44,591 bases of DNA from a virus. The stretch lies in the IMG/VR virus record IMGVR_UViG_3300001528_000183, positions 1 to 44,591 of that record; one strand, given 5' to 3'. Of the stretch, positions 12,132-24,787 are shown piece after piece. Position 1 is the stretch's first letter. Every line of letters begins with the position of its first letter. The notes beneath the pieces are model-generated. The model was not told the origin of the DNA and searched no databases. It was given only the letters and a program-made list of their open reading frames with translations. A program made the translations under genes and the position numbers.

Positions 12132-13511
12132 CTATGCAAAAAAAATACCAACGATCTCTTTTGCTTTGTTTATGCGGATTTCTTTGATCACAGATCTCCA
12201 TAACGTGCGCTTGTCTTCAGCCGATAAGCCGTCATACATAGCTTTAAAATCAGACTGTAACAGACGCTCAGCGGCAGAAAAGTCCGGAGCAGCTTCCAAG
12301 ATCGGATCCGGAAGCTGGTTCAATGCAGCAGTGTAGATCTCGTAGTCCTTCTTGTAATCTTCTAAGTCAATCAAATCATTTACATATAATTCCTTTAACT
12401 TCTTTAATTTATTTTTCAATGCAGCCTTTTCATTACTTCCAAGCTTACGTTGCTGTTCAGCCGCTTTAAGGTTCCATTCAAGCTTGCAGCGTTCAATTTC
12501 TTCCTGCAAGTGATCAAATAACCACGCTTCTATAACATCTTCCCGAAAAGAGCTGTTATTGCTACAAGTATCGCGCTGATGATGCTGAGGGCATCTATAG
12601 TAGTGGTGAACTTTTGCCTGGTATCCAGAGAGTTTATGGCCACACTCATCACATACCAAGAGAGAAGAAAAAATATATACTTTTCCGGTTGGATAAAATT
12701 TGACATTCTTTGAAGTTAAGACTTGCACACGTTCAAACTGCTCTTTGCTTATGATCGCAGGGCAAAAGTTCTCATTTCGCCTACCCCTGCGATCATATAC
12801 GCCAGTATAAAGACGCTGGGATAGTAGGCGGCGAAATGTGGCACCGCACCAGTTCACTCCATAAGTTTCTCGAATATATCTAATTGTGCCGCGTAGAGTA
12901 ACAGTACTTTCATAGCGATCAAAGGCAGCCTGCACGATAGCAGCTTCATCCGGAACAATCTCAAATTTCTTTTCGGCATTTAGTTTATACCCATATGGGC
13001 AGTGGCCGGAAATTGAGCTGCCGTGGGCAATCTTGCTATCAAAAACTACAGAAATACGTTCACCACAAATATCAGCTTCATTTTGTGCAATGGAGAGCTT
13101 TACGTTGATGTATAAACGGCCATTTGCTGTGCTGGTATCATAATCCTCGTCAATGGTTTTCCAACCACAATTATGCTGCTCTAAAATTTCGATCACCTTG
13201 TAATAGTCGGCTACGGATCGGAACCAACGATCCAGGCGGCAGAAAAGCAACAGATCTACTTCATCACGCTTCACGGCCTCCAGCATCTTTAAAAATTCAG
13301 TACGCTTATGAATGTTCTTCCTTGCTGTTTTTGCAGCATCAATATAGATGCCGACAATCGCCCAACCTTTTTCACGGGCGAACGCTTCAAGACGTTCCTG
13401 CTGGGCCTCGAGTGATAATCCTTTAATTTTCTGTTCTTCGCCGGATACGCGAATGTACAAAGCAACACGGCAGACAGAGTTTTCATTTTTAGAAAAAGCC
13501 TTTTTTACCAT
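12132..13511 (-). CDS. Large serine recombinase (integrase)
   Basis: 459 aa. Resolvase catalytic region VALYIRVSGEEQ, a recombinase domain, a zinc ribbon (CDECGHKL...YYRCPQH) and a C-terminal coiled coil. Confidence 0.85.
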   Translation of the reverse strand: MVKKAFSKNENSVCRVALYIRVSGEEQKIKGLSLEAQQERLEAFAREKGWAIVGIYIDAAKTARKNIHKRTEFLKMLEAVKRDEVDLLLFCRLDRWFRSVADYYKVIEILEQHNCGWKTIDEDYDTSTANGRLYINVKLSIAQNEADICGERISVVFDSKIAHGSSISGHCPYGYKLNAEKKFEIVPDEAAIVQAAFDRYESTVTLRGTIRYIRETYGVNWCGATFRRLLSQRLYTGVYDRRGRRNENFCPAIISKEQFERVQVLTSKNVKFYPTGKVYIFSSLLVCDECGHKLSGYQAKVHHYYRCPQHHQRDTCSNNSSFREDVIEAWLFDHLQEEIERCKLEWNLKAAEQQRKLGSNEKAALKNKLKKLKELYVNDLIDLEDYKKDYEIYTAALNQLPDPILEAAPDFSAAERLLQSDFKAMYDGLSAEDKRTLWRSVIKEIRINKAKEIVGIFFA

Positions 13512-13661: not shown

Positions 13662-15044
13662 TTACATAGCATTTTCGGCTTTCAAAATATCTAAGGTTGC
13701 ATTATATTCGCGAGCAACCGGAATACGTGTAAACACAACTGTGTTATTAAAATTTTCTTTAACAGTCTTCTCAATTTCATCAAGAGACACGCGGAAGAAC
13801 TCTTTCTTTAAGTTTACACGATTTACGCTCTGCTTTTCAAATTTATGATGCAAAGCGGTTTCGAGCGCCGGAGCATCCTCGGAGAAGATCATGGCATGAA
13901 CATCGAACTCAAACGGGACGGATGCACTGCCAAGCTCTTTAATACGATCCATTGGTTCAAGTCTTCTGGTCATACCGATCTTATACACACCTTCACCAAA
14001 AGAACCAATATTAGAAATCACATAGACATATCCAGCACGGGCATTTGCTTCGCGTTCCAGAACTGTTTCTTTTTCTTTCTCAAGATCCTGCTTCTTTTCT
14101 TCAAGCTGCTGAATCTTATCAGCATAGATCTTCTTTTCAACTTCGCTTTCTGTTGATTGCAGATATCCCATCAATTTCTTAATCTCATTGCTACATTGAG
14201 TCTGATCCTTTTCAAGCTTCTGTTTCTGGCGTTCGATCTCTTTTCTTGCACGTTCATCCTCAAGCAGCTGCTCTTTAATTTCACGCTGCTGCTGGCGTTC
14301 CTCTTCACGCTTTAACTCGTATGTATACACCAGATTCAATTCTTCAAGCTTCGCCTTTAGGAAAGCTTCAGAAAGCGCTACGTTGTCTGCTGCAAAAAGC
14401 TTATTCAAAGTTTCAAAAGAACCAAGAATCTTTTTTCTGCAAGCTTCCATACTCTTTACAGATAAGCCAAGCAAAATATTGTCGCACTCGCAATTGAAGC
14501 AACGAATGATCTGCTTAATATTATCTTGGGCGCGCTTCTTTGAATCTTGAGATGTAGAGACAACAAACTTTCCAGATCGAATGTTTTCCTTTTCCTGCAT
14601 TTTTAAAAGGGAAAGTTTAGAGCGGCATTCTTCAGAAGAAATACCATCATAATCTGAATAGCGATACTGATCAACATAAGTGTTTGCCAGACTTTCAGTT
14701 CCTTGCTGACGTAACTGGGCAAGCTCCTGACGTTTTTTAGTAATTTCAGAATCATAAGCGGATTTGTTATTGCGAAAATCAGCTTGAAGCTTTTCAAGTT
14801 CGGATTGCTGGTTTTGCTTTGCACGATTAAGATCGTCTTCAAGCTGCTGAATAGAAGCGTCTAACGTATCATACTTGCCATATTTCTCAGCACGGGCTTT
14901 CTCAAACTTTCGCCGCGAATGAATCTGCACAAACAGCAAGATCACACCGACAATAGCGGGGATAACGAATGGCCATGCTGCAATTAGCAAGCAAATGAAC
15001 CAAGTCTGTAAATACCATTTTTCTTTCATAGTAAAAACCTCCAT
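13662..15044 (-). CDS. Membrane-anchored coiled-coil protein with C-terminal T5orf172/GIY-YIG-like domain (DUF4041-type architecture)
   Basis: 460 aa. N-terminal TM segment WFICLLIAAWPFVIPAIVGVILLFV, long charged coiled coils, and a C-terminal GYVYVISNIGSFGEGVYKIGMTRRLEPMDRIKELG motif. Confidence 0.65.
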   Translation of the reverse strand: MEVFTMKEKWYLQTWFICLLIAAWPFVIPAIVGVILLFVQIHSRRKFEKARAEKYGKYDTLDASIQQLEDDLNRAKQNQQSELEKLQADFRNNKSAYDSEITKKRQELAQLRQQGTESLANTYVDQYRYSDYDGISSEECRSKLSLLKMQEKENIRSGKFVVSTSQDSKKRAQDNIKQIIRCFNCECDNILLGLSVKSMEACRKKILGSFETLNKLFAADNVALSEAFLKAKLEELNLVYTYELKREEERQQQREIKEQLLEDERARKEIERQKQKLEKDQTQCSNEIKKLMGYLQSTESEVEKKIYADKIQQLEEKKQDLEKEKETVLEREANARAGYVYVISNIGSFGEGVYKIGMTRRLEPMDRIKELGSASVPFEFDVHAMIFSEDAPALETALHHKFEKQSVNRVNLKKEFFRVSLDEIEKTVKENFNNTVVFTRIPVAREYNATLDILKAENAM

Positions 15045-15303
15045 AACTAAAATCCAGTATTTTTAAAATAATTTCTTAATTGATCGAACAATTACCAATA
15101 ATTACCAGTATTATCTAGGCGATTTGTAATGTAATATAGACAATGCACCCAGCTATGAAAGGGCAGGGTGGTTGATATGATTATTAAAAAATACGTTTAC
15201 TATAAACATACAAATGTATATGCACTATATTACAGATTGAATAATACCCTGTATTACAACAGGAATTTTAAAGGTAAATGTAAACTTATAATTTTCAATT
15301 AAG

Positions 15304-15337
15304 AAAAAAGGCTGGGTGCATTACCCAGCCCCCAGCC
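15304..15337 (-). terminator. Intrinsic terminator, copy 1 of a 34-nt repeat
   Basis: Minus strand reads ggctgggt-aatgc-acccagcc then tttttt. Identical to 15859..15892. The TAA stop of ORF 15321..15785 lies in the loop. Confidence 0.7.
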
Positions 15338-15836: not shown

Positions 15837-15858
15837 CCCAAAATTGAAAACATCAAAC

Positions 15859-15892
15859 AAAAAAGGCTGGGTGCATTACCCAGCCCCCAGCC
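15859..15892 (-). terminator. Intrinsic terminator, copy 2 of the 34-nt repeat
   Basis: Identical 34 nt to 15304..15337. Starts a few nt downstream of the stop of ORF 15897..16322. Confidence 0.7.
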
Positions 15893-16495: not shown

Positions 16496-16675
16496 ATGAC
16501 CGAAGACAAATCAATTGTAAGCTTACTGTTATCAGCAAACAGCAAGAAAGAAGTAGAAGATGTGATGGACTTCACAAAGACATTAACAACAGACCAAGCC
16601 AAGGAGTTTGAAACGTTATTGCGTGGTGTAAAGATCGGATTAGATCTGGCAACAGGAGGAATTAAGACAGCATAA
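16496..16675 (+). CDS. First early gene, small hypothetical protein (59 aa, below the ORF-track cutoff)
   Basis: AAGGAGG at 16481..16487, ATG at 16496, TAA at 16673. Sequence MTEDKSIVSLLLSANSKKEVEDVMDFTKTLTTDQAKEFETLLRGVKIGLDLATGGIKTA. Confidence 0.55.
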   Translation: MTEDKSIVSLLLSANSKKEVEDVMDFTKTLTTDQAKEFETLLRGVKIGLDLATGGIKTA

Positions 16676-16687
16676 AGGAGAACAGAT

Positions 16688-17164
16688 ATGACATTGGCTC
16701 AGAAGTTTTTGCAGGCTACAGAGACGCTTGACCGTCTCTGTAAGTACGCAGACGCAGGTATCGACATTGCGATCAATGCAGGGGCATCGCCAGAGGAAAA
16801 CGAATTTGCAGTTTTTCCAGCGTCCTGCGCAATCAAATTAAACGTAGACAGAGATATAGCAGCAGAGGCAAAGGTGCAGATCCAGGAAGAAATTGTGGAA
16901 TATGCGAAGAATGCGGTAGAAGCAGAAAAGATTAAGGATATGAACAAGAATCTGATAAGCATCGGAAGAATTATGGGGCATGTTGTAGTGCTTCGCGAGC
17001 TGGGATATCAGGTAGATGTAATCCATTACACGCATGGAGACTGGCGAGTGCCATGTGAAATCCGGATCAACGGAAAAGAAATCTATCACATTAACAGCAA
17101 AGATTTTCCAAAGGCTCCGGATCCGCAAAAGCGAAAGAAGAGAAGAAAGCAAATCAGCCAATGA
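16688..17164 (+). CDS. Hypothetical early protein
   Basis: 158 aa, RBS AAAGGAG, basic C-terminal tail. No family recognised. Confidence 0.6.
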   Translation: MTLAQKFLQATETLDRLCKYADAGIDIAINAGASPEENEFAVFPASCAIKLNVDRDIAAEAKVQIQEEIVEYAKNAVEAEKIKDMNKNLISIGRIMGHVVVLRELGYQVDVIHYTHGDWRVPCEIRINGKEIYHINSKDFPKAPDPQKRKKRRKQISQ

Positions 17165-17185
17165 CAAAAGAGAGGAGGCAGAGAC

Positions 17186-18136
17186 ATGGCAACAGAATTA
17201 AAGTATGAGCTTGATAAGCTCGAAGAGGTACAGACACGATACCAGCAGATGATGGATAAGTACCGTGAACACGTTAGAGCGGATCTGTTCTTGGCAGAGG
17301 ATGAAGAAAACTACAAGAAGCTTTCTGAGGAGCTGCACGAGCAGCTGACCAAAATCAGAACGCTTGCAAGCGAGAAAACAAGCTACGATCAGTGGTTAGA
17401 CGATCAGAAGGAAGAGGCAGAGGATGAGTTTGTGCCAACAGAAGATGCGCAAGCTGAACAGGCAGAAATAAGTCAGGACAATAATAGCACAGTGGGGCTG
17501 GAATTTGTTTCGCGCCGCTTGATTTTACGCTGCGAAGGCTTAGCAGATCTGTGCAAGGAAAGACAGTGGTACACGAAAGGAACGGCTGAGCAATACGCGA
17601 AGCTGCTCCAGATCGAAGATAAGGAGAATGCAACGCTGAAAGATGCGGTTGAAGCGGCACAAGATATCCATGAGCATAGCAGCAGAGGAACGCTGGAAGA
17701 AATCATGGAAGCAGTGCTGCGTAATCTAAAAGCGTATTATATCGAGGAAACCGAAGCACCAGAGAGGTGGCCACCCGTAGCAGAACATATAAGAGAAAAT
17801 ACACCAGAGCTTGCATCACAAACAGCTGCGCTGGCAAAGATCCGCACGGAACTAGAAGGAATCAACACAAAAGAATCCATTATGATTTGTGGACTGGAAG
17901 GTATGTTTTTACATGTAATCAAGAATGCACCAGATTTGCAGAAAGCAGTAATTGAATCAGAAAGAACGGCAGTTGATTGTCTATGCTGCCTGGTACAAGC
18001 ACTTTCGCAGGAGCCTTCCAAGTTTCCAGAAGATATAACACCGTGGGGAAAATTGGCAATTCCGGATCTTTCACGAAAGTCAGTTGAGGAGATTGTAAGA
18101 AGCTATTATAGCGTACCAGAAAAGAGCTTGAGTTAG
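17186..18136 (+). CDS. Hypothetical early protein (acidic, helical)
   Basis: 316 aa, RBS GAGGAGG. No family recognised. Confidence 0.6.
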   Translation: MATELKYELDKLEEVQTRYQQMMDKYREHVRADLFLAEDEENYKKLSEELHEQLTKIRTLASEKTSYDQWLDDQKEEAEDEFVPTEDAQAEQAEISQDNNSTVGLEFVSRRLILRCEGLADLCKERQWYTKGTAEQYAKLLQIEDKENATLKDAVEAAQDIHEHSSRGTLEEIMEAVLRNLKAYYIEETEAPERWPPVAEHIRENTPELASQTAALAKIRTELEGINTKESIMICGLEGMFLHVIKNAPDLQKAVIESERTAVDCLCCLVQALSQEPSKFPEDITPWGKLAIPDLSRKSVEEIVRSYYSVPEKSLS

Positions 18137-18155
18137 GCGATCAGGAGGTGACAAC

Positions 18156-18338
18156 ATGGAAGTACATGGGACTTTTGATGCCCAGCGATTTTGGGAGGTT
18201 ATGGCAAACCTGGCATTGAAGAGAGAAGGAATCAACGTCACCGCGAAAGCAAAAAGATTGCCTGATGCGGCGGATCCAGGTCGCAAGATCTGCGTAAGCC
18301 AGACAGAACAGTTACCGGAGCAGAAGAAAGCGGTTTGA
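18156..18338 (+). CDS. Hypothetical protein
   Basis: 60 aa, RBS AGGAGGTG. Confidence 0.5.
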   Translation: MEVHGTFDAQRFWEVMANLALKREGINVTAKAKRLPDAADPGRKICVSQTEQLPEQKKAV

Positions 18339-18384
18339 TTATACCAGATAAAACATATCGGATCAGTTCAATAAAGGAGATATA

Positions 18385-18555
18385 ATGCAAGACTTTTTTG
18401 AAATAATGATAGCAGCAAGACTCTTTGGCTGGGGTATCCGAAAGGAAGACAAAGAACGAGTCCAAAAAGAGCTGAGAACAGCATCAGAAGCCAAAGTGGA
18501 GCGAATTTGTCAGCTCCTGGGCAAGTATGAAGGCGGGAGACTGGATGAGCAATGA
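18385..18555 (+). CDS. Small hypothetical protein (56 aa, below the ORF-track cutoff)
   Basis: AAAGGAG at 18372..18378, ATG at 18385, ATGA overlap with the next gene. Confidence 0.45.
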   Translation: MQDFFEIMIAARLFGWGIRKEDKERVQKELRTASEAKVERICQLLGKYEGGRLDEQ

Positions 18556-18872
18556 ATGATGAAATTTGTTTACAGTGCGGTAAAAGATTTGTTGCATTGT
18601 CGGTTAATCAAAGATACTGTTGCAAGGCTTGCGGGCAACGATACAGAGCAACGCACAAAGGGTACATACATTATCCATCAATAGTTTTTGATTGCGCCCA
18701 GTGCGGAAGGCATGTTGTAACAGAGGAAGGAAGCCGAGATATGCGGACGAGATTTTGCTGCGAAACATGCGAAAAGAAGTTTTGGCGGCATCCGCATTGG
18801 GAGAATCCAAGTAGCAGAATCAATTTCAGAAGCGTAAAAGAATACTTAGCTTATGAAAAGAGGACAACATGA
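18552..18872 (+). CDS. Zinc-ribbon protein (four CxxC pairs)
   Basis: 106 aa containing CLQCG, CCKACG, CAQCG and CCETCE. Confidence 0.6.
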   Translation: MNDEICLQCGKRFVALSVNQRYCCKACGQRYRATHKGYIHYPSIVFDCAQCGRHVVTEEGSRDMRTRFCCETCEKKFWRHPHWENPSSRINFRSVKEYLAYEKRTT

Positions 18873-19087
18873 AGAAAAGAAAGCCGTGTTTTGTATGGAT
18901 GGAAATTACAAAAGATAAATATGAGCTTCCGATACATATCGCGGACTCGGCAAAAGAGCTTGCAGAGCTTACCGGAGCAAAAAATGCAACAACGATACTA
19001 TCGGCTATATATCATGCAAATAAGCGCGGTGGCAGATGCAAATACATAAGAGTACCAATCACAGACGAAACACAGGAAGGAGAATGA
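18869..19087 (+). CDS. Hypothetical protein
   Basis: 72 aa, ATGA overlap with the upstream gene. Confidence 0.5.
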   Translation: MKKRKPCFVWMEITKDKYELPIHIADSAKELAELTGAKNATTILSAIYHANKRGGRCKYIRVPITDETQEGE

Positions 19088-19088
19088 A

Positions 19089-19388
19089 ATGATTGTAGTA
19101 AATAAGCAAAGAACATCATTGATCAACATGGATCATATCTCGTGTGTCTATATGGGGGTCGATGGCTCTCTCAAGGCGAACTACGCAGCAGGAGATGGAT
19201 GCCAGATTGCAAGATACAATACCCCAGCAGAGGGAGAGATGGCATTGGCTATGCTGATCGAATCAATCGGAAAGACGGAAGTCTTTTATTGTCCGAGTGA
19301 CGAGGCGGTGCGTGCACGTATCACTGCCAGCGGTCAGAAGTACCATCATGTAACCGGAAAGAAAACGAAAGGACATGGTGGATCGTAA
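19089..19388 (+). CDS. Hypothetical protein
   Basis: 99 aa, RBS GGAAGGAG. Confidence 0.5.
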   Translation: MIVVNKQRTSLINMDHISCVYMGVDGSLKANYAAGDGCQIARYNTPAEGEMALAMLIESIGKTEVFYCPSDEAVRARITASGQKYHHVTGKKTKGHGGS

Positions 19389-20050
19389 TGGACTACAAAA
19401 ACGAGATTGTAAAAATTATCACGTCCATGTCAGGCCGTTACTCCAGCTATGATATATTTTCTGATTGGATTAAGTGCGCGTCGTTATCAATCGTCAATTC
19501 AACTACACTGTTCACGGGGAAACTGTGGAAGGACAGAGAAAAGGCATACATGGATATAATCAGTAAGTATTCCCGAGATGAAGCGCAGCACTTCCCAGAA
19601 CTGTTCGCATTATTGAAATTGGCATTGCAGGAAGAAATGACAGATGTTCTCGGTTGGGTGTATATGGAAGCTGGTATGGGAAACAAAACGACAGGCCAGT
19701 TTTTCACACCGTTCACAGTGTCGTATGCAATGGCGCAGCTGACAGTTCCAAAAGATATCGATCCTGAGAAGGTGTATCGCTTTGCAGAACCAAGTACCGG
19801 CGGTGGAGGCATGATTATAGCAGCTGCCAAGGTACTGCAAGACAGAGGTATCAATTATCGGCGCTGCATGGATGTAGTGGCACAGGATTTGGACTGGAAA
19901 GCCGTGTATATGTCGTATCTGCAATTTAGTTTGCTTGGTATCAAAGCAACCGTAGTGCAGGGCGATTCGCTTGCAGAGCCGTACACTGGCAGAGGATATC
20001 CGCCAGAGCGTGTATTGTATACCCCGGCGAGAAAGGGGATGCTACTCTGA
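19388..20050 (+). CDS. N6-adenine DNA methyltransferase-like protein lacking a canonical catalytic motif IV
   Basis: 220 aa. GQFFTP (motif X) and FAEPSTGGGGM (motif I, SAM binding) are present. After QGDSL the expected NPPF/Y position reads GYPPE, and the ORF ends 12 aa later. Confidence 0.55.
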   Translation: MDYKNEIVKIITSMSGRYSSYDIFSDWIKCASLSIVNSTTLFTGKLWKDREKAYMDIISKYSRDEAQHFPELFALLKLALQEEMTDVLGWVYMEAGMGNKTTGQFFTPFTVSYAMAQLTVPKDIDPEKVYRFAEPSTGGGGMIIAAAKVLQDRGINYRRCMDVVAQDLDWKAVYMSYLQFSLLGIKATVVQGDSLAEPYTGRGYPPERVLYTPARKGMLL

Positions 20051-20853
20051 TGGAAGAAAAGATTGAGAAATTTATCGACTTTCTCCGGCAGGAAGAACGA
20101 TCAGAAAATACAATAGATACTTATGTACATAGCATCAAAAAGTATTTTGAGCTGTTCAACGAGATCACAAAGAAAAACATGATCGAATACAAAAAGTATA
20201 TGATAAGCAGCTACGCACCGAAAACGGCATCAAATCGGTGCATAGCAATGAACCAGTTCTGCAAATTCGTTGGAAAAACGGACTGCATGGTAAAAACAAT
20301 CAAAATTCAAAAGACATTATGCGTAGAGAATGTTCCTACGCTGGATGAATACAACAAGTTACTGAGTGTGCTTTTGGAAAATGGAGATGAAAGAAATTAC
20401 TGGTTAATCAAATACCTTGCAAAGACAGGAGCGCGAGTATCTGAGGTTATTCAGTTCGAGAAGAAACATCTTGAAAAGGGAGAAGTAGAGATTTGGACGA
20501 AAGGAAAAATACGAAAGATCTATATTCCCCAAAATCTCATTGAGGAAAGCAGAGAATACTTTTCAAGGGATCCAGAACAGAAATATCTGTTTCCAAACAA
20601 GGATGGAAAGCAATCATCAACGAGGGGAATTGCATCACGAATTCATAAAATGGAAAAATATGGATTCAGACCCGAAATGTTACATCCACATGCATTCCGA
20701 CACTTATACGCGATAGAATTTCTCAAGCGGAATGGTGACATTGCATTGCTGTCAAGCTTGATGGGGCATGAAAGCATAGACACAACAGCGATTTATTTGC
20801 GGCGATCGGCAGAGGAACAAAAGAGATCGCTTAATGAGGCCATGAACTGGTAG
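20050..20853 (+). CDS. Tyrosine recombinase (Xer/integrase family) 1
   Basis: 267 aa. TGARVSE (Arg), HAFRHLYA (HxxR), GHESIDTTAIYL (His, Tyr). TGATG overlap with the upstream gene. Confidence 0.8.
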   Translation: MEEKIEKFIDFLRQEERSENTIDTYVHSIKKYFELFNEITKKNMIEYKKYMISSYAPKTASNRCIAMNQFCKFVGKTDCMVKTIKIQKTLCVENVPTLDEYNKLLSVLLENGDERNYWLIKYLAKTGARVSEVIQFEKKHLEKGEVEIWTKGKIRKIYIPQNLIEESREYFSRDPEQKYLFPNKDGKQSSTRGIASRIHKMEKYGFRPEMLHPHAFRHLYAIEFLKRNGDIALLSSLMGHESIDTTAIYLRRSAEEQKRSLNEAMNW

Positions 20854-20878
20854 AGGTGAAAGGAGGCAACCATAAGCA

Positions 20879-21958
20879 ATGGAAGTAAAGGATGAGCGTG
20901 ATTCACTCGTAAATGAATTGTGCGTAAAACTTGCTCCAAGATATGGCAATATGCAAGAGTTAAAGAATGCGCTGTACATGATCTTAAATCCATACGAGAT
21001 CACCAGCAGAAGCACAGAAGTAGCGGTGGTTGATGAAGATCAGAATGAGGCACTGTTAAGACGCTTCCTGGTAGCAAAGAAAGTTTCTGGAAGAACTGAA
21101 AGAACATTAGAGCAGTATGAATCATCTATAAAACGCACACTTGAAATGATAGGAAAAACAGCAACAGAAATCCAAGTTGTAGATATCCGAATGTATATTG
21201 CTATTCGGATGAGCAGAGATAAAGTAGCAAATGCAACAATTACGAATGAGATTCGGTATTTAAAAAGTTTTTTCATGTGGATGCAGCAGGAAGAGATTGT
21301 AACACGAAATCCGATGTTGAAAATTGAAAAAATCAAAGAGCCAAAAACACGAAAAGAAGCATTAACGGATATGGAAGTGGAAAAGCTTAGAGGAGCAGTC
21401 CGTGATGAGAGAGAACAAGCGATTCTTGAAGTTTTGCTATCAACGGGATGTCGTGTAGCTGAACTTGTCCAAATTCTTAAATCTGATATTCAAGGTGAAC
21501 GGATTCTGATATATGGAAAGGGACGAAAAGAACGATTCGTGTATTTGAATGCGAAAGCGATGCTGGCTATTGAAAATTACTTAAAGCAGAGGAAAGATAA
21601 TAATCCATATCTTTTCCCGAAAAGCTATAATGTTGCCGATAAAGAACATAAAGCACAACATGCATCTCCGAAAGAAAAGCATATATGGTGGATATCGCCT
21701 GAGTTTGTGAAACCAGATGGAAGCATGAATAAAGGAACCGCGGAGAATATCATGCGTAGGCTTGCAGTTCGCGCGGGTGTGAAAAAGGCAAATCCGCACA
21801 AGCTGCGCCGAACATGCGCGACAATGGCACTCAGAAGAGGGATGCCGATCGAGCAGGTGTCGAAGATGTTGGGGCATGAAGAATTAACTACAACGCAGAT
21901 CTATCTCGATCTGTCAGAAGATGAGTTGGCACAGGCTCACAAGAAATATGTCATTTAG
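20879..21958 (+). CDS. Tyrosine recombinase (Xer/integrase family) 2
   Basis: 359 aa. STGCRVAEL, HKLRRTCAT, GHEELTTTQIYL, plus a SAM-like N-terminal domain. Confidence 0.8.
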   Translation: MEVKDERDSLVNELCVKLAPRYGNMQELKNALYMILNPYEITSRSTEVAVVDEDQNEALLRRFLVAKKVSGRTERTLEQYESSIKRTLEMIGKTATEIQVVDIRMYIAIRMSRDKVANATITNEIRYLKSFFMWMQQEEIVTRNPMLKIEKIKEPKTRKEALTDMEVEKLRGAVRDEREQAILEVLLSTGCRVAELVQILKSDIQGERILIYGKGRKERFVYLNAKAMLAIENYLKQRKDNNPYLFPKSYNVADKEHKAQHASPKEKHIWWISPEFVKPDGSMNKGTAENIMRRLAVRAGVKKANPHKLRRTCATMALRRGMPIEQVSKMLGHEELTTTQIYLDLSEDELAQAHKKYVI

Positions 21959-21976
21959 AAAGAGGTGAAAAGAAAT

Positions 21977-22429
21977 ATGGTTACTACCAGAGAAATCATA
22001 GAACGCTTACAGAGTTATGAGCGCACACATGGAGTTTGCGTTGTAAGCAGTATTAGCAGAGTACAGAGCGATAATCCAGCAGAAATTGACTTTACTTTTC
22101 ATGTGGCTCCACCCAAAGTAGAGAATCGCCTGACAGTAGATACACTGGTCACAGGAAAGTATCTGGAGACGTTGAAATGTCGTATCATTTCTGATGCAGT
22201 AACGATGAATGAAGCGGCAAAACAGAGTTTGCTCTATACCAATTATCTCCATAAAGGAAAGCTAACTGCACATATAGAAATTGCAGAGGAAATTGGATAC
22301 AAACTAAAGGCAGACATTCAGCAGTACGATAAGGTATACATAGTCAGAAAAATTACAATTAACGATATTCCGTTATACGAGGGCAAAGCAGAAAAGTATA
22401 TGCCAGAGCAAAAGGCAGAGGAAGAATAG
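21977..22429 (+). CDS. Hypothetical protein
   Basis: The track ORF opens at GTG 21965. The ATG at 21977 is better spaced from AAAGAGG. Confidence 0.5.
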   Translation: MVTTREIIERLQSYERTHGVCVVSSISRVQSDNPAEIDFTFHVAPPKVENRLTVDTLVTGKYLETLKCRIISDAVTMNEAAKQSLLYTNYLHKGKLTAHIEIAEEIGYKLKADIQQYDKVYIVRKITINDIPLYEGKAEKYMPEQKAEEE

Positions 22430-22444
22430 AGAAAGGAAGAGAGC

Positions 22445-23272
22445 ATGGAAAGATGGAAGCCACAGGCAGGTGATCACGTATACCATGTATGCGAGTTCAG
22501 ATTGGATTCCTACGAAATGAGGAAGAAAGATATAGAAGGATTCAAGTGCTGGGGATACGAGGTTGTAGAGTCCGTGATAGTGGATAAGTATACCTGGCGA
22601 TCTAAGGCAGGATCCGCAACAATCGGATGGGCAAGCGAGCTGATCCGCCGCGATGTCGGAAAGATCACAGACGCTAACAGGATGTTCTATTGGAAAGAAA
22701 ATGATTTTGGAACAGTTGCATTTCGCACGCTGGCTGAAGCTATTCAGCAGGCGGAAGGGCGCATAAAATTAGCGTGTGCAGCATTGCACGAAACGAGAAT
22801 TGAAGACCAGCCGATGTATCGAAATTGGCTACATTGGGAAAAGGACACATTTGAAACCGATATAGTATCAAAAGATAATAAGGAAGAAGCAACAAAAACG
22901 GAAAAAATAAAGCAGCCACTATCAGAGCAAAAGCCTAAGCAAAAACGGCCAGCCCAAAGAAAAGCAGTATTGAGCGAAGAACTGTATATACAGTGGAGAG
23001 ATGGAAGGATTTCGGCAGCTGCTGGAGCTGAGAAGCTAGGTGTTACGGATATGACTTTCTTGAAGTATGGAAAAGAGATGTTAGAACAGCGAGGAGAAAC
23101 CAGAAAAGAGATCTCACGTCCACTTCCGGAGAATTTTGAAAAGATGTATCAGAAATGGAAAGAAGGCGATATTTCAATGGCAAATGCAGCAAGAGCTTGC
23201 GGCATGTCATATTCTTCATTTCAGTTCCAGGCACGGAAACGAAAGCGAAAAGCAAAGCCTCAAGAGGCATAG
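22445..23272 (+). CDS. Hypothetical DNA-binding protein with two C-terminal resolvase-type HTH repeats
   Basis: 275 aa. WRDGRISAAAGAEKLGVTDMTFLKY and WKEGDISMANAARACGMSYSSFQF are tandem HTH-like repeats. Confidence 0.5.
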   Translation: MERWKPQAGDHVYHVCEFRLDSYEMRKKDIEGFKCWGYEVVESVIVDKYTWRSKAGSATIGWASELIRRDVGKITDANRMFYWKENDFGTVAFRTLAEAIQQAEGRIKLACAALHETRIEDQPMYRNWLHWEKDTFETDIVSKDNKEEATKTEKIKQPLSEQKPKQKRPAQRKAVLSEELYIQWRDGRISAAAGAEKLGVTDMTFLKYGKEMLEQRGETRKEISRPLPENFEKMYQKWKEGDISMANAARACGMSYSSFQFQARKRKRKAKPQEA

Positions 23273-23389
23273 AAAAACCGCCGATCGGTAACGATCAGCG
23301 GCAGTAAAAAGAAGCCTTTCCCAGAGACACCTATAGTATTCTATTTGAAAGAATAAGTCAATAGAAAAGTAGGAGGAAAGGAAGAAAAA

Positions 23390-23818
23390 ATGAACAAGAG
23401 ACAGAAAAAGAAGCTATACAAGAAGCTGCATGGCCACAATCCGCCTAAGCGCCAACCAAAGGAGGCAAGACCGAAAGAATTAAAGCAGGAAATGCCGGGA
23501 CAAGAAACCAAAGAAACAGAAGGCCTGATGAAAGCAGTAGATTATATGTGTCAGACGGCAACCAAAGCAATAGGAACTGCGTTTCATGCAATTTCAAAGT
23601 TCTTTGGGCAGCTTGGTGCCTCATTTTGCGTGGCAAGCACCGGAATGGAAGAGATCGCAAAAAGCTACTACAACGCAAATGAGCTGATCGAGCAGCCGGA
23701 TCCTGCAAGCATGGCAGTGACAACAGCAAAAGCGCTGACTGCACAGCGCGCCGCAGGAAAAAGAAAGAAAAGAATCACAACCACAACAGGGAGGAAAAGA
23801 AGAAATGGAAGAAATTAA
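23390..23818 (+). CDS. Hypothetical basic protein
   Basis: 142 aa with Lys/Arg-rich termini. RBS AGGAGGAAAGG. Confidence 0.5.
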   Translation: MNKRQKKKLYKKLHGHNPPKRQPKEARPKELKQEMPGQETKETEGLMKAVDYMCQTATKAIGTAFHAISKFFGQLGASFCVASTGMEEIAKSYYNANELIEQPDPASMAVTTAKALTAQRAAGKRKKRITTTTGRKRRNGRN

Positions 23819-24434
23819 AAATTATATCATTAGCCATGAAAACACATACAAGATGCCAATGGAAGAGTTGCAGGCAATGATCAGAAGCGGAGAAGCTGCC
23901 AAGCAGCTGCACACACATGACAAGATCGTACTCACATTCGATGGAAGAGAAGAACTGCACGAAGTTATCGCCATTGATGCAGAAAATCTTGTTGATAAGT
24001 CCTTGAAGCACAGCATTACATTACAGCCTGTCCGCCTGATCGGAGAGCCAAAGCCATTTGATGAGGATGGAAAGAATCTTTGGAGTACGAGCAGCATTCG
24101 CAAGTACCTCAACAGCGATGAGTTCATTGCGCGATATGCAGAGGATATGAAGAGATATACAGCGCTGGTTGAAAAGGAAACAGAAGGAGACGTACCAACT
24201 GTAGATAGATTTTTCTTGTTGTCGTTGGATGAAGTCGAAGGAGGTTATCCGGCATTTCAGACAGAGAAAGATCGTATCAAAGTTGACCTGGAAGGCGAGA
24301 CAGACTGGCACTTTTTGCGCAGTGCGAGTCGCGGCTATGCGTGCTATACGTGGTGCGTCTACGCGAGCGGCCATGTCCACGGCAGCAACGCGATCTACGC
24401 GATTCGCTTCGCCCCAGCTTGTGTAATCGCATAA
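23805..24434 (+). CDS. DGR target 2: stand-alone ligand-binding protein with C-terminal variable region
   Basis: 209 aa. The last ~110 nt copy TR 8417..8526, and all 12 differences are at TR adenines. It shares the W/Y..S.IR.YLNSD and D.FFL.SL.E motifs and the RFAPACVI terminus with the C-terminal half of target 1. Confidence 0.85.
   Translation: MEEIKNYIISHENTYKMPMEELQAMIRSGEAAKQLHTHDKIVLTFDGREELHEVIAIDAENLVDKSLKHSITLQPVRLIGEPKPFDEDGKNLWSTSSIRKYLNSDEFIARYAEDMKRYTALVEKETEGDVPTVDRFFLLSLDEVEGGYPAFQTEKDRIKVDLEGETDWHFLRSASRGYACYTWCVYASGHVHGSNAIYAIRFAPACVIA
24314..24423 (+). repeat. DGR variable region 2 (VR2)
   Basis: 104-nt core versus TR 8417..8520 shows 12 mismatches, all at TR adenines (8431, 8439, 8448, 8458, 8463, 8475, 8481, 8484, 8485, 8488, 8499, 8506). 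It shares the 3' boundary cttgtgtaat with VR1. Confidence 0.9.
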
Positions 24435-24446
24435 TTATGGCAATAT

Positions 24447-24468
24447 CAACCGCACACTTGCGGTTGAA
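24447..24468 (+). promoter_or_regulatory. Hairpin downstream of VR2 (9-bp stem tcaaccgca/tgcggttga, loop cact)
   Basis: Perfect inverted repeat about 19 nt after VR2 homology ends. Its apex gcaCACTtgc matches gcaCACCtgc after VR1. Confidence 0.75.
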
Positions 24469-24787
24469 TGAAACTATAAACTTAGAACAACTAGAAGGGA
24501 ACGAGAAAAGCCCTTGCATGTGTTGATGGCACAAGATGCAAGGGCTTTCTGCAAGCAAAAGGTTCGATCACGAACCAAATACATTATAGCATGGTCCAAA
24601 AAGGAGTGCAAGTACAACGAGATAGAAAGTCTAAAAAGATGGCGGAAGTATCCGCTTAACGGGCTTGTATTGGGTATTAACATTCCTACGATAGAAAGAA
24701 AATACGGTGTTATAGTGTGCGAGTGACTGAATGCCAGGTGGCAGCAGCTGCCTTCCGTTACCTTCTCAGGGAAAGGGAGGATAGCTA

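Follow-up and report, generated by a model that had tools for sequence, protein, structure and literature searches.

The DNA analyzed here, IMG/VR virus record IMGVR_UViG_3300001528_000183 (44,591 nt; hereafter the window, meaning this whole stretch), carries a phage diversity-generating retroelement (DGR) in which a TR (template repeat) and an RT (reverse transcriptase) accompany a first variable region (VR1), located in a tail-fibre tip protein (target 1, T1). We studied a second variable region, VR2, which lies in a small stand-alone protein of the early gene region (target 2, T2). We conclude with high confidence that the single DGR of this phage has VR2 as a real second target, which is still in use.

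The ungapped alignment of VR2 (24314..24417) with the TR (8417..8520) contains 12 mismatches and 12/12 are located at TR adenines. With 28 A among the 104 bases of this part of the TR, the probability that all 12 mismatches fall on A by chance is approximately 1.8e-8. The alignment and the list of mismatched adenines given in a first-pass annotation of this DNA were thus reproduced exactly. Its statement that VR2 shares its 3' boundary with VR1 and not with the TR was also right, since the homology extends to 24423 (8526 in the TR), where VR1 and VR2 both read CTTGTGTAAT and the TR reads ATTGTGCCAC. By contrast, the spacing of 16.4 kb that it gave between TR and VR2 has to be corrected to 15,897 nt, measured start to start (28.6 kb the opposite way round the circular genome). 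The window contains this repeat three times and no more (as VR1, TR and VR2), and we found no second RT in its 44,591 nt. In the two genomes in which both regions were readable, VR1 and VR2 had no variable residues in common. The idea that the two regions of one genome are similar, and hence bind the same ligand, was rejected for these two genomes.

We then compared VR2 between samples. The T2 protein search retrieved 35 homologues. All of them are stand-alone proteins and nearly all have a length of about 209 aa; close T2 homologues form 90%-identity clusters of 14, 31 and 55 members, and a cluster at 68% identity contains 206. Among the homologues at least 90% identical to T2 (n = 38), at least four residue types were observed at only 12 positions (175, 178, 181, 184, 186, 190, 192-195, 198 and 200), and these are exactly the AAY/TAC codons of the TR. 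At the DNA level, 38/112 adenine cells were changed relative to the TR in four distinct VR2 sequences, against 4/304 non-adenine cells. For VR1, the comparison of eight relatives gave 94/224 and 5/608, respectively. Outside the variable region (codons 1-170), the dN/dS of T2 was 0.04-0.05 at a dS of 0.47-0.72, a ratio indicating at the codon level that the T2 scaffold is under strong purifying selection.

Both variable regions also carry signals expected of a DGR target. They share CGCTTCGCCCCAG-C-TTGTGTAAT, an end resembling the initiation of mutagenic homing (IMH) sequence, whereas the TR has an A in place of the C and differs from there on (ATTGTGCCAC). The VR/TR pairs that we examined came from 6 lineages, and in all of them the VRs end with a GC-rich stretch followed by C-TTGT and the TRs with A-TTGT. 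In addition, a perfect hairpin of 7-11 bp was found 18-32 nt after the TTGT at every VR1 and VR2 examined in these six lineages, and the TRs were without it. The hairpin stems vary among lineages, with one compensatory pair between the stems of contigs L033 and L038. By analogy with phage BPP-1, they may act as cruciform-type target-recognition elements. In BPP-1, no more than the IMH and the hairpin/cruciform was needed to direct the DGR at a foreign gene (PMC3240598). The IMH-like end and the hairpin at VR2 would therefore account for the action of a single cassette on a site at a distance of 16 kb. The BPP-1 system (mtd-avd-TR-brt) further resembles this one in the adenine-specific TR-to-VR transfer, the association of Avd with an RT, the distinction of IMH from IMH*, the GC-rich hairpin 3' of the VR and a VR placed C-terminally in a fold read as lectin-like. 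It differs in having one adjacent tail-fibre target with the Mtd fold, T2 being a DUF6273 protein, and the hairpins described here are distinguished by their distance from the IMH-like end and by their CACY or 8-nt loops. The details that this locus adds are the C/A discriminator at the IMH, the hairpins at both VRs and, as described below, the one-codon gains and losses in the variable regions at the (AAC)4 tract.

If the established DGR mechanism, known from BPP-1, applies, the TR would be transcribed and Avd/RT would synthesize a cDNA with random bases opposite adenines. This diffusible cDNA could then replace any stretch that ends with an IMH and is followed by a cruciform-forming hairpin, retrohoming being independent of distance. 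Since VR1 and VR2 both bear an IMH-like end and a hairpin, both would be rewritten independently. In T2, approximately 16 codons of the putative binding surface would be re-randomized, giving roughly 10^15-10^16 possible proteins.

The same association of TR and VR2 was found beyond this genome; the pairing was available for the window, for MT835491 and for three pairs of contigs from metagenome-assembled genomes (MAGs; L031/L034, L032/L035 and L033/L038). In close relatives the succession of genes is preserved: N6-methyltransferase, a pair of tyrosine recombinases, a gene of 271 aa, p142, T2 and Rep, followed by VRR_NUC, ParA, ParB and terminase. The layout T1-Avd-TR-RT with a distant small T2 recurs in lineages that are only 39-41% identical. 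In MT835491.1, from human faeces and with proteins 41-54% identical, T1, Avd, TR and RT are located at 38.7-41.8 kb and T2 at 54.2 kb, near genes for a helix-turn-helix (HTH) protein and a single-stranded DNA-binding protein (SSB), and 13/13 mismatches between VR2 and its own, different TR are at adenines. A third lineage, MAG C.9_6 (L033 for T2; L038 for T1, TR and RT), also exhibited adenine-only differences between VR2 and TR. Finally, MT835477.1 (L018) encodes a 45%-identical T2 homologue within 4166..7119, among genes for RecT, a nucleoid-associated protein, a C5 DNA methylase and an SSB. The methylase gene adjoins the T2 homologue and is split by an intein (Hint domains). This homologue retains the IMH-like end and the hairpin; in the 84.7-kb contig a TR was not found, and only a weak RT-like match was detected, at 48.9 kb. 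T2-like genes were thus found amid early, replication or methylase genes in four lineages. Because this placement is the same in divergent lineages, it is recurrent and not an accident of one genome. Taken together with the presence of one RT and one TR in the window, the restriction of VR2-TR differences to adenines and the cross-sample variation of T2 confined to codons with TR adenines, the co-evolution of VR2 with divergent TRs in other lineages supports the proposal, made from the sequence of this phage alone, that a single TR/RT acts in trans on two loci.

Exact look-ups of the window repressor, p142 and a 79-aa head-tail protein returned no record, two IMG/VR scans (with protein patterns and with an A-to-N degenerate TR pattern) returned nothing, INPHARED blastn gave no close relative, one metagenome scan gave just two short contigs and T2 tblastn matched only three unannotated faecal contigs. 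The binning of the MAGs suggests Lachnospiraceae hosts (Acetatifactor sp. and Roseburia sp.); a Roseburia sp. MAG supplied a T2 homologue of 49% identity.

Two other explanations of VR2 were weighed against its use as a second target. In the first of them, VR2 is a fossil, i.e., the remnant in a decaying fibre-tip paralogue that is no longer rewritten or functional. The remote site and small size of T2 would agree with this, as would the 1-nt frameshift inside the VR of one relative (L032) and the T2 homologue of MT835477 in a contig without a TR. However, the present TR is matched more closely by VR2, with adenine-only differences, than by VR1, which shows an extra codon and two non-adenine changes. 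Moreover, hypervariability was observed only at adenine-coded positions over dozens of samples, the dN/dS is approximately 0.05, the open reading frame (ORF) is intact in the examined clusters (14 to 206 members) and VR2 has co-evolved with divergent TRs. The first-pass annotation had held that VR2 would be a fossil if it lacked adenine-linked variation across samples while VR1 varied. In our comparison VR2 varied as much as VR1, and the fossil hypothesis, which retains a minute probability in our view, is refuted by this cross-sample variation. Alternatively, T1 and T2 could have exchanged sequence by ordinary recombination or gene conversion, or the assembly could be chimeric, and the likeness of VR2 to the TR would then not be due to retrohoming. 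VR1, TR and VR2 are indeed 85-90% identical, enough to break or confuse assemblies, and several related contigs terminate at these repeats. Such events hardly account for mismatches that are adenine-specific relative to the TR and not to VR1, nor for the lack of common variable residues between VR1 and VR2 of one genome; the unique flanks of VR2 were furthermore reproduced in independent ENA, Logan, NCBI and JGI assemblies. We regard this origin as extremely improbable.

The features on which this account of VR2 as a second DGR target relies are presented in Table 1.

Table 1. Location of the DGR components, the two targets and the associated signals in the window (feature, position, strand, basis or remark).
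Tail-fibre N-terminal protein, 205 aa, precedes T1	5998..6615	+	PHROG tail-fibre match
Target 1 (T1), 418-aa DUF6273 tail-fibre tip protein	6631..7887	+	Pfam, E 4.8e-16
VR1 with IMH-like end	7741..7872	+	one extra codon in the (AAC)4 block, two non-adenine changes
Hairpin 3' of VR1, CCAGGGGCGCA-CACC-TGCGCCCCTGG	7894..7919	+	fold and lineage comparison
Avd accessory protein, 142 aa	7953..8381	+	PHROG 3206 'Avd protein of DGR', E 2.3e-5
TR with IMH*-like end	8403..8526	+	8417..8520 is the part common to VR2
DGR RT, 382 aa	8626..9774	+	Pfam RVT_1, E 3e-11; YMDD and GSQ motif
p142, 142-aa very basic protein, close relatives only	23390..23818	+	overlap with T2
Target 2 (T2), 209-aa stand-alone DUF6273 protein, final gene of the rightward early block	23805..24434	+	ORF, Pfam
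VR2, T2 codons 170-205	24314..24417	+	gapless TR match, adenine-only mismatches
IMH-like 3' end of VR2, CGCTTCGCCCCAG-C-TTGTGTAATC	24405..24428	+	same as VR1 end through CTTGTGTAAT
Perfect 9-bp hairpin 3' of VR2, TCAACCGCA-CACT-TGCGGTTGA	24446..24467	+	DNA fold energy -10.5 kcal/mol
Long GC-rich inverted repeat in the T2-Rep gap	24510..24545		read off the sequence

The cassette is organized in the order tail-fibre N-terminal protein, T1, Avd, TR and RT. T1 is 417 aa long in 10/10 relatives, and Avd lies between T1 and TR/RT in 10/10 places shown; the exact Avd sequence occurs in 87 blocks of an assembly index, from which 23 contigs were read. The spacing of the GSQ motif of the RT is not an exact fit to the canonical [ILV]GxxxSQ. 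Near-identical TRs bearing (AAC)4 were found in 11 related contigs, and two TR polymorphisms followed into the variable regions. At 8438 (GGC/GGT), the GGT form is repeated in the VR1 of every contig that has it with a readable VR1, and is also present in several VR2s without their own TR at hand; at 8498 (ATC/ATT), ATT is repeated in the VR1 of both such contigs. The two non-adenine changes of VR1 are G8429>A and T8507>G. A hairpin at 8544..8560 (CTGATAC-ATA-GTATCAG), 18 nt past the TR end, is kept in all close relatives and may belong to the spacer of the DGR RNA that serves in priming.

The (AAC)4 tract is also the site of codon gain and loss. All 13 TRs seen have (AAC)4, and the VR1 of the window has five codons at that block, reading GGC AGC AAT TAC GGC. 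In the Acetatifactor MAG pair, it is VR2 that has five codons (L031) with four in VR1 and TR (L034), and VR2 variants with five and three codons recur in the T2 protein clusters. As the extra codons are not duplicates of neighboring codons, the simplest reading is that they arise by slippage on a repetitive template in cDNA synthesis. The suggestion that VR1 is dead owing to its extra codon was rejected: VR1 is hypervariable in relatives, and L031/L034 carry the extra codon in VR2 with a TR that is still (AAC)4. In the T2 gene of L032 (68%-identity clade, MAG H07676), a 1-nt insertion at ~900..940 shifts the frame in the block derived from (AAC)4; this may reflect either a true pseudogene or an error in a consensus built from mixed VR sequences.

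We next considered the T2 protein. T2 matches Pfam DUF6273 (PF19789) over residues 85-206 (E 6.5e-9; 36.3 bits vs a cut-off of 23.5). An AlphaFold2 (AF2) model from a 50-sequence alignment gave a pLDDT (predicted local distance difference test) of 94.4 and a pTM (predicted template modelling score) of 0.90; an earlier model from 25 close sequences was weak in the VR (pLDDT 70.5) and its PDB fold search came back empty. A sequence-profile search of the PDB with T2 gave no matches. With the model, Foldseek identified a sole solved relative, the Thomasclavelia ramosa IgA peptidase 9qa6 (E 2.5e-5), which is the only solved DUF6273-containing protein and has this domain at its N-terminus. There were 31 viral models at E<=0.001, mostly DUF6273 with some annotated as tail-collar fibre or receptor-binding proteins, and no significant Foldseek match to Mtd or to other solved DGR variable proteins. 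Canonical C-type lectins scored E>1 only, and the assignment of T2 to the C-type lectin (CLec) fold therefore rests on published analyses. A weak match to phrog_9958 (E 2.5e-4) was also observed.

Within the same genome, T2 is related to T1. BLASTP aligned T2 with the C-terminal part of T1 at 33% identity (E 7e-14), and hhalign aligned T2 90-209 with T1 236-416, i.e., the lectin part only, at a probability of 99.5%, the BLASTP matches between the N-terminal regions being non-significant (E>1). Because the alignment covers the lectin part only, T2 appears from these comparisons to be a minimal free module without a demonstrated counterpart of the longer N-terminal part of T1. Overall, T2 is one complete DUF6273 lectin-like module and a trimmed paralogue of the C-terminal lectin-like part of T1. 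The earlier description of T2 as a 209-aa protein resembling the C-terminal part of target 1, and as a free binding module without a tail-attachment N-terminus, therefore holds. T1 has the N-terminal attachment region and the tail-module location of an Mtd-like fibre tip, and T2 has neither. A profile search with T2 returned 3,171 representatives; these include giant proteins, several of them bearing signal peptides, that contain the region of query positions ~17 to 208 as a recurrent module.

T2 is also placed apart from the structural genes, in agreement with the first-pass annotation, which located it among early genes. The + strand genes from 16496 to 24434 are closely packed with T2 as the last one, followed by a gap of 353 nt and then Rep. 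The inverted repeat in this gap probably marks, judging from its sequence, the end of the early transcription unit, and it was not flagged by a simple terminator scan of the + strand. The T2 gene has a strong Shine-Dalgarno sequence, GGGAGG, 9 nt before its start and overlaps the upstream ORF p142 by 14 nt, and p142 is probably translationally coupled to T2. In the search for a conserved partner gene of T2, p142 was found conserved in the close clades and the 68% clade only. The other neighbors are Rep, VRR_NUC, ParA and ParB downstream, and two tyrosine recombinases and an N6-methyltransferase upstream, the latter 3.8 kb from T2. The distance from T2 to the gene for the terminase large subunit (30611) is 6.2 kb, and the distance to the tail-fibre genes (5998..7887) is about 26 kb round the circle. 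PADLOC gave no match for p142 or for the 275-aa and 154-aa neighbor proteins.

Expressed from this early gene block, T2 would be a free, non-fibre variable ligand binder with a specificity separate from that of T1. Judging from the methylase and recombination genes nearby, T2 may act outside the virion in the conflict between phage and host, by binding a host or competing-phage factor, a role to which we give nearly an even chance. A more specific version, in which T2 is an early cytoplasmic 'programmable binder' that neutralizes or senses variable host or rival-phage factors such as defence proteins, seems rather unlikely to us at present. If true, T2 would represent a DGR-driven counter-defence or exclusion module, and function would be the reason why four divergent lineages place it by genes for methylases, recombination and replication. 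T2 could instead be a virion-associated or lysis-released accessory adhesin, namely a second, independently tuned receptor- or mucus-binding protein acting outside the cell. The small DUF6273-only targets in phages nd4 and nd12 have been read as Mtd-like receptor binders, and receptor binding has been proposed by the Toutatisvirus authors. This possibility deserves attention but is doubtful given that T2 is the last gene of a close-packed early block far from both the terminase and the fibre genes, that its homology with T1 (T2 90-209 vs T1 236-416) leaves the N-terminal part of T1 without a demonstrated counterpart, that it has no signal peptide and that the early placement is repeated in four divergent lineages.

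Several points weigh against a rewritten VR2 in an early, free T2. A few VR2 differences in relatives are located at non-adenine positions (8438 and 8457); T at 8438 is a known TR polymorphism, and the change at 8457 was absent from every TR seen. Retrohoming into the VR2 of this very genome and the timing of T2 expression are both inferred, and no promoter was identified for T2. The DUF6273 relatives with a readable context are extracellular, being surface proteins with signal peptides or tail tips, which argues against an intracellular role of T2. In addition, PADLOC gave no match for T2, and no partner gene of T2 was found conserved past the close clades.

Phage DGR biology is usually framed as tail-fibre retargeting. 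A second diversified, small, lectin-like protein of the early region, conserved across divergent gut Clostridia phages, implies that hypermutation is invested in another interaction. The first-pass annotation had implied that remote second targets are rare, which overstates the case given the precedents of Wu et al. (PMC5758913), Shimadzu, Toutatisvirus, Lelie and CP11. Wu et al. (2018) described many phage-associated DGRs with one adjacent target and one non-adjacent target within 50 kb, and the survey of Roux et al. (2021) was by its own account unable to detect such remote targets. According to a 2025 Nature study of induced human-gut prophages (PMC12629997), a distal second VR lies near methyltransferases in four gut prophage species, as T2 does here downstream of the N6-methyltransferase gene, and the DGR-bearing prophages mostly infect Bacteroidota. 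Neither this study nor that of Wu et al. assigns a function or structure to the second target.

Closer parallels are found in phages of gut Clostridia. The Roseburia intestinalis phage Shimadzu, like the phage studied here, is a Lachnospiraceae myovirus with one RT/TR for two VRs, VR1 in a tail gene and VR2 in orf43/44, to which no function is assigned. Read analysis showed that both VRs undergo diversification in culture (2% of reads) as well as in mice; the likeness of orf43/44 to T2 is by description only. Like this phage, the Faecalibacterium phage FP_Toutatis is a myovirus of gut Clostridia with a temperate lifestyle, and its Avd-TR-RT cassette likewise lies at the tail/lysis end. It encodes gp24, a stand-alone DUF6273 protein of ~215 aa with a C-terminal second VR. 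A distance of 17,480 nt separates the gp24 gene from the TR; the gene belongs to the early region, where it lies upstream of those for the replication initiator and an endonuclease, and is a core gene of Toutatisvirus present in 98.8% of genomes. T2 matches this gp24-type layout, i.e., a stand-alone protein of ~200-215 aa with a C-terminal VR, whose early-region gene is separated from the RT by more than 10 kb and is conserved in its group. However, T2 and gp24 gave no tblastn match at 1e-4, and hhalign covered 36 VR residues only (probability 91%). The first targets also differ, Toutatis having a Hoc-like/Ig-domain 'tentaclin' downstream of the RT and this phage a fibre-tip protein upstream of Avd, and ParA/ParB and the two tyrosine recombinases set this phage apart from Toutatis. 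A pair of DUF6273 targets, one large and one small, is reported for Lelie and CP11, also phages of Faecalibacterium, the small one being distal to the cassette, with adenine-linked variation across genomes at both VRs of CP11. The two-target layout is thus already described in related gut phages, and the present locus adds a documented case and no new mechanism. Such second targets have been flagged in at least four papers without a function. For this question, the T2 family is a good test case, being abundant in human-gut data with hundreds of natural variants, compact (one 209-aa module), confidently modelled, constrained in its scaffold and provided with clear cis signals.

Other features of the genome were noted. 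An exact 75-nt terminal repeat (1..75 = 44517..44591) indicates that the contig is circular, with a genome of 44,516 bp. The junction of the circle falls within the tape-measure gene, where internal repeats of 54-96 nt are present (44385..44494). A serine integrase (12132..13511) and two adjacent XerC/D-like tyrosine recombinases (20050..21958) occur in this one phage, together with a Rep initiator, VRR_NUC and ParA/ParB at 24788..28525, and from this gene content the phage might be maintained as a plasmid in addition to integrating. A more distant relative, L011, is integrated beside ABC-transporter genes and is without T2. On the - strand, 13662..15044 encodes a 460-aa SNIPE/T5orf172 protein that matches the PADLOC anti-phage defence family PD-Lambda-1 (E 1.6e-116). 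This gene looks like a prophage-borne defence gene by its sequence and position, since it sits between the serine integrase and the repressors. In relatives, the slot after the lysin gene (equivalent to ~12.1-13.5 kb of the window) holds different cargo. In L021 (14451..20429) and L025 (12482..15077), it comprises DUF6431, a Csm6/CARF protein, Cas1, Cas2 and a 961-aa RT-AEP/TOTE fusion, and L022, L024 and L006 have a protein of 1226-1394 aa in this slot. The post-lysin slot beside the DGR is a cargo hotspot, as reported for Toutatisvirus. Finally, two 37-nt terminator-like hairpin repeats with 97% identity (AAAAAAGGCTGGGTGCATTACCCAGCC), at 15301..15337 and 15856..15892, flank the gene for the 154-aa HTH repressor.

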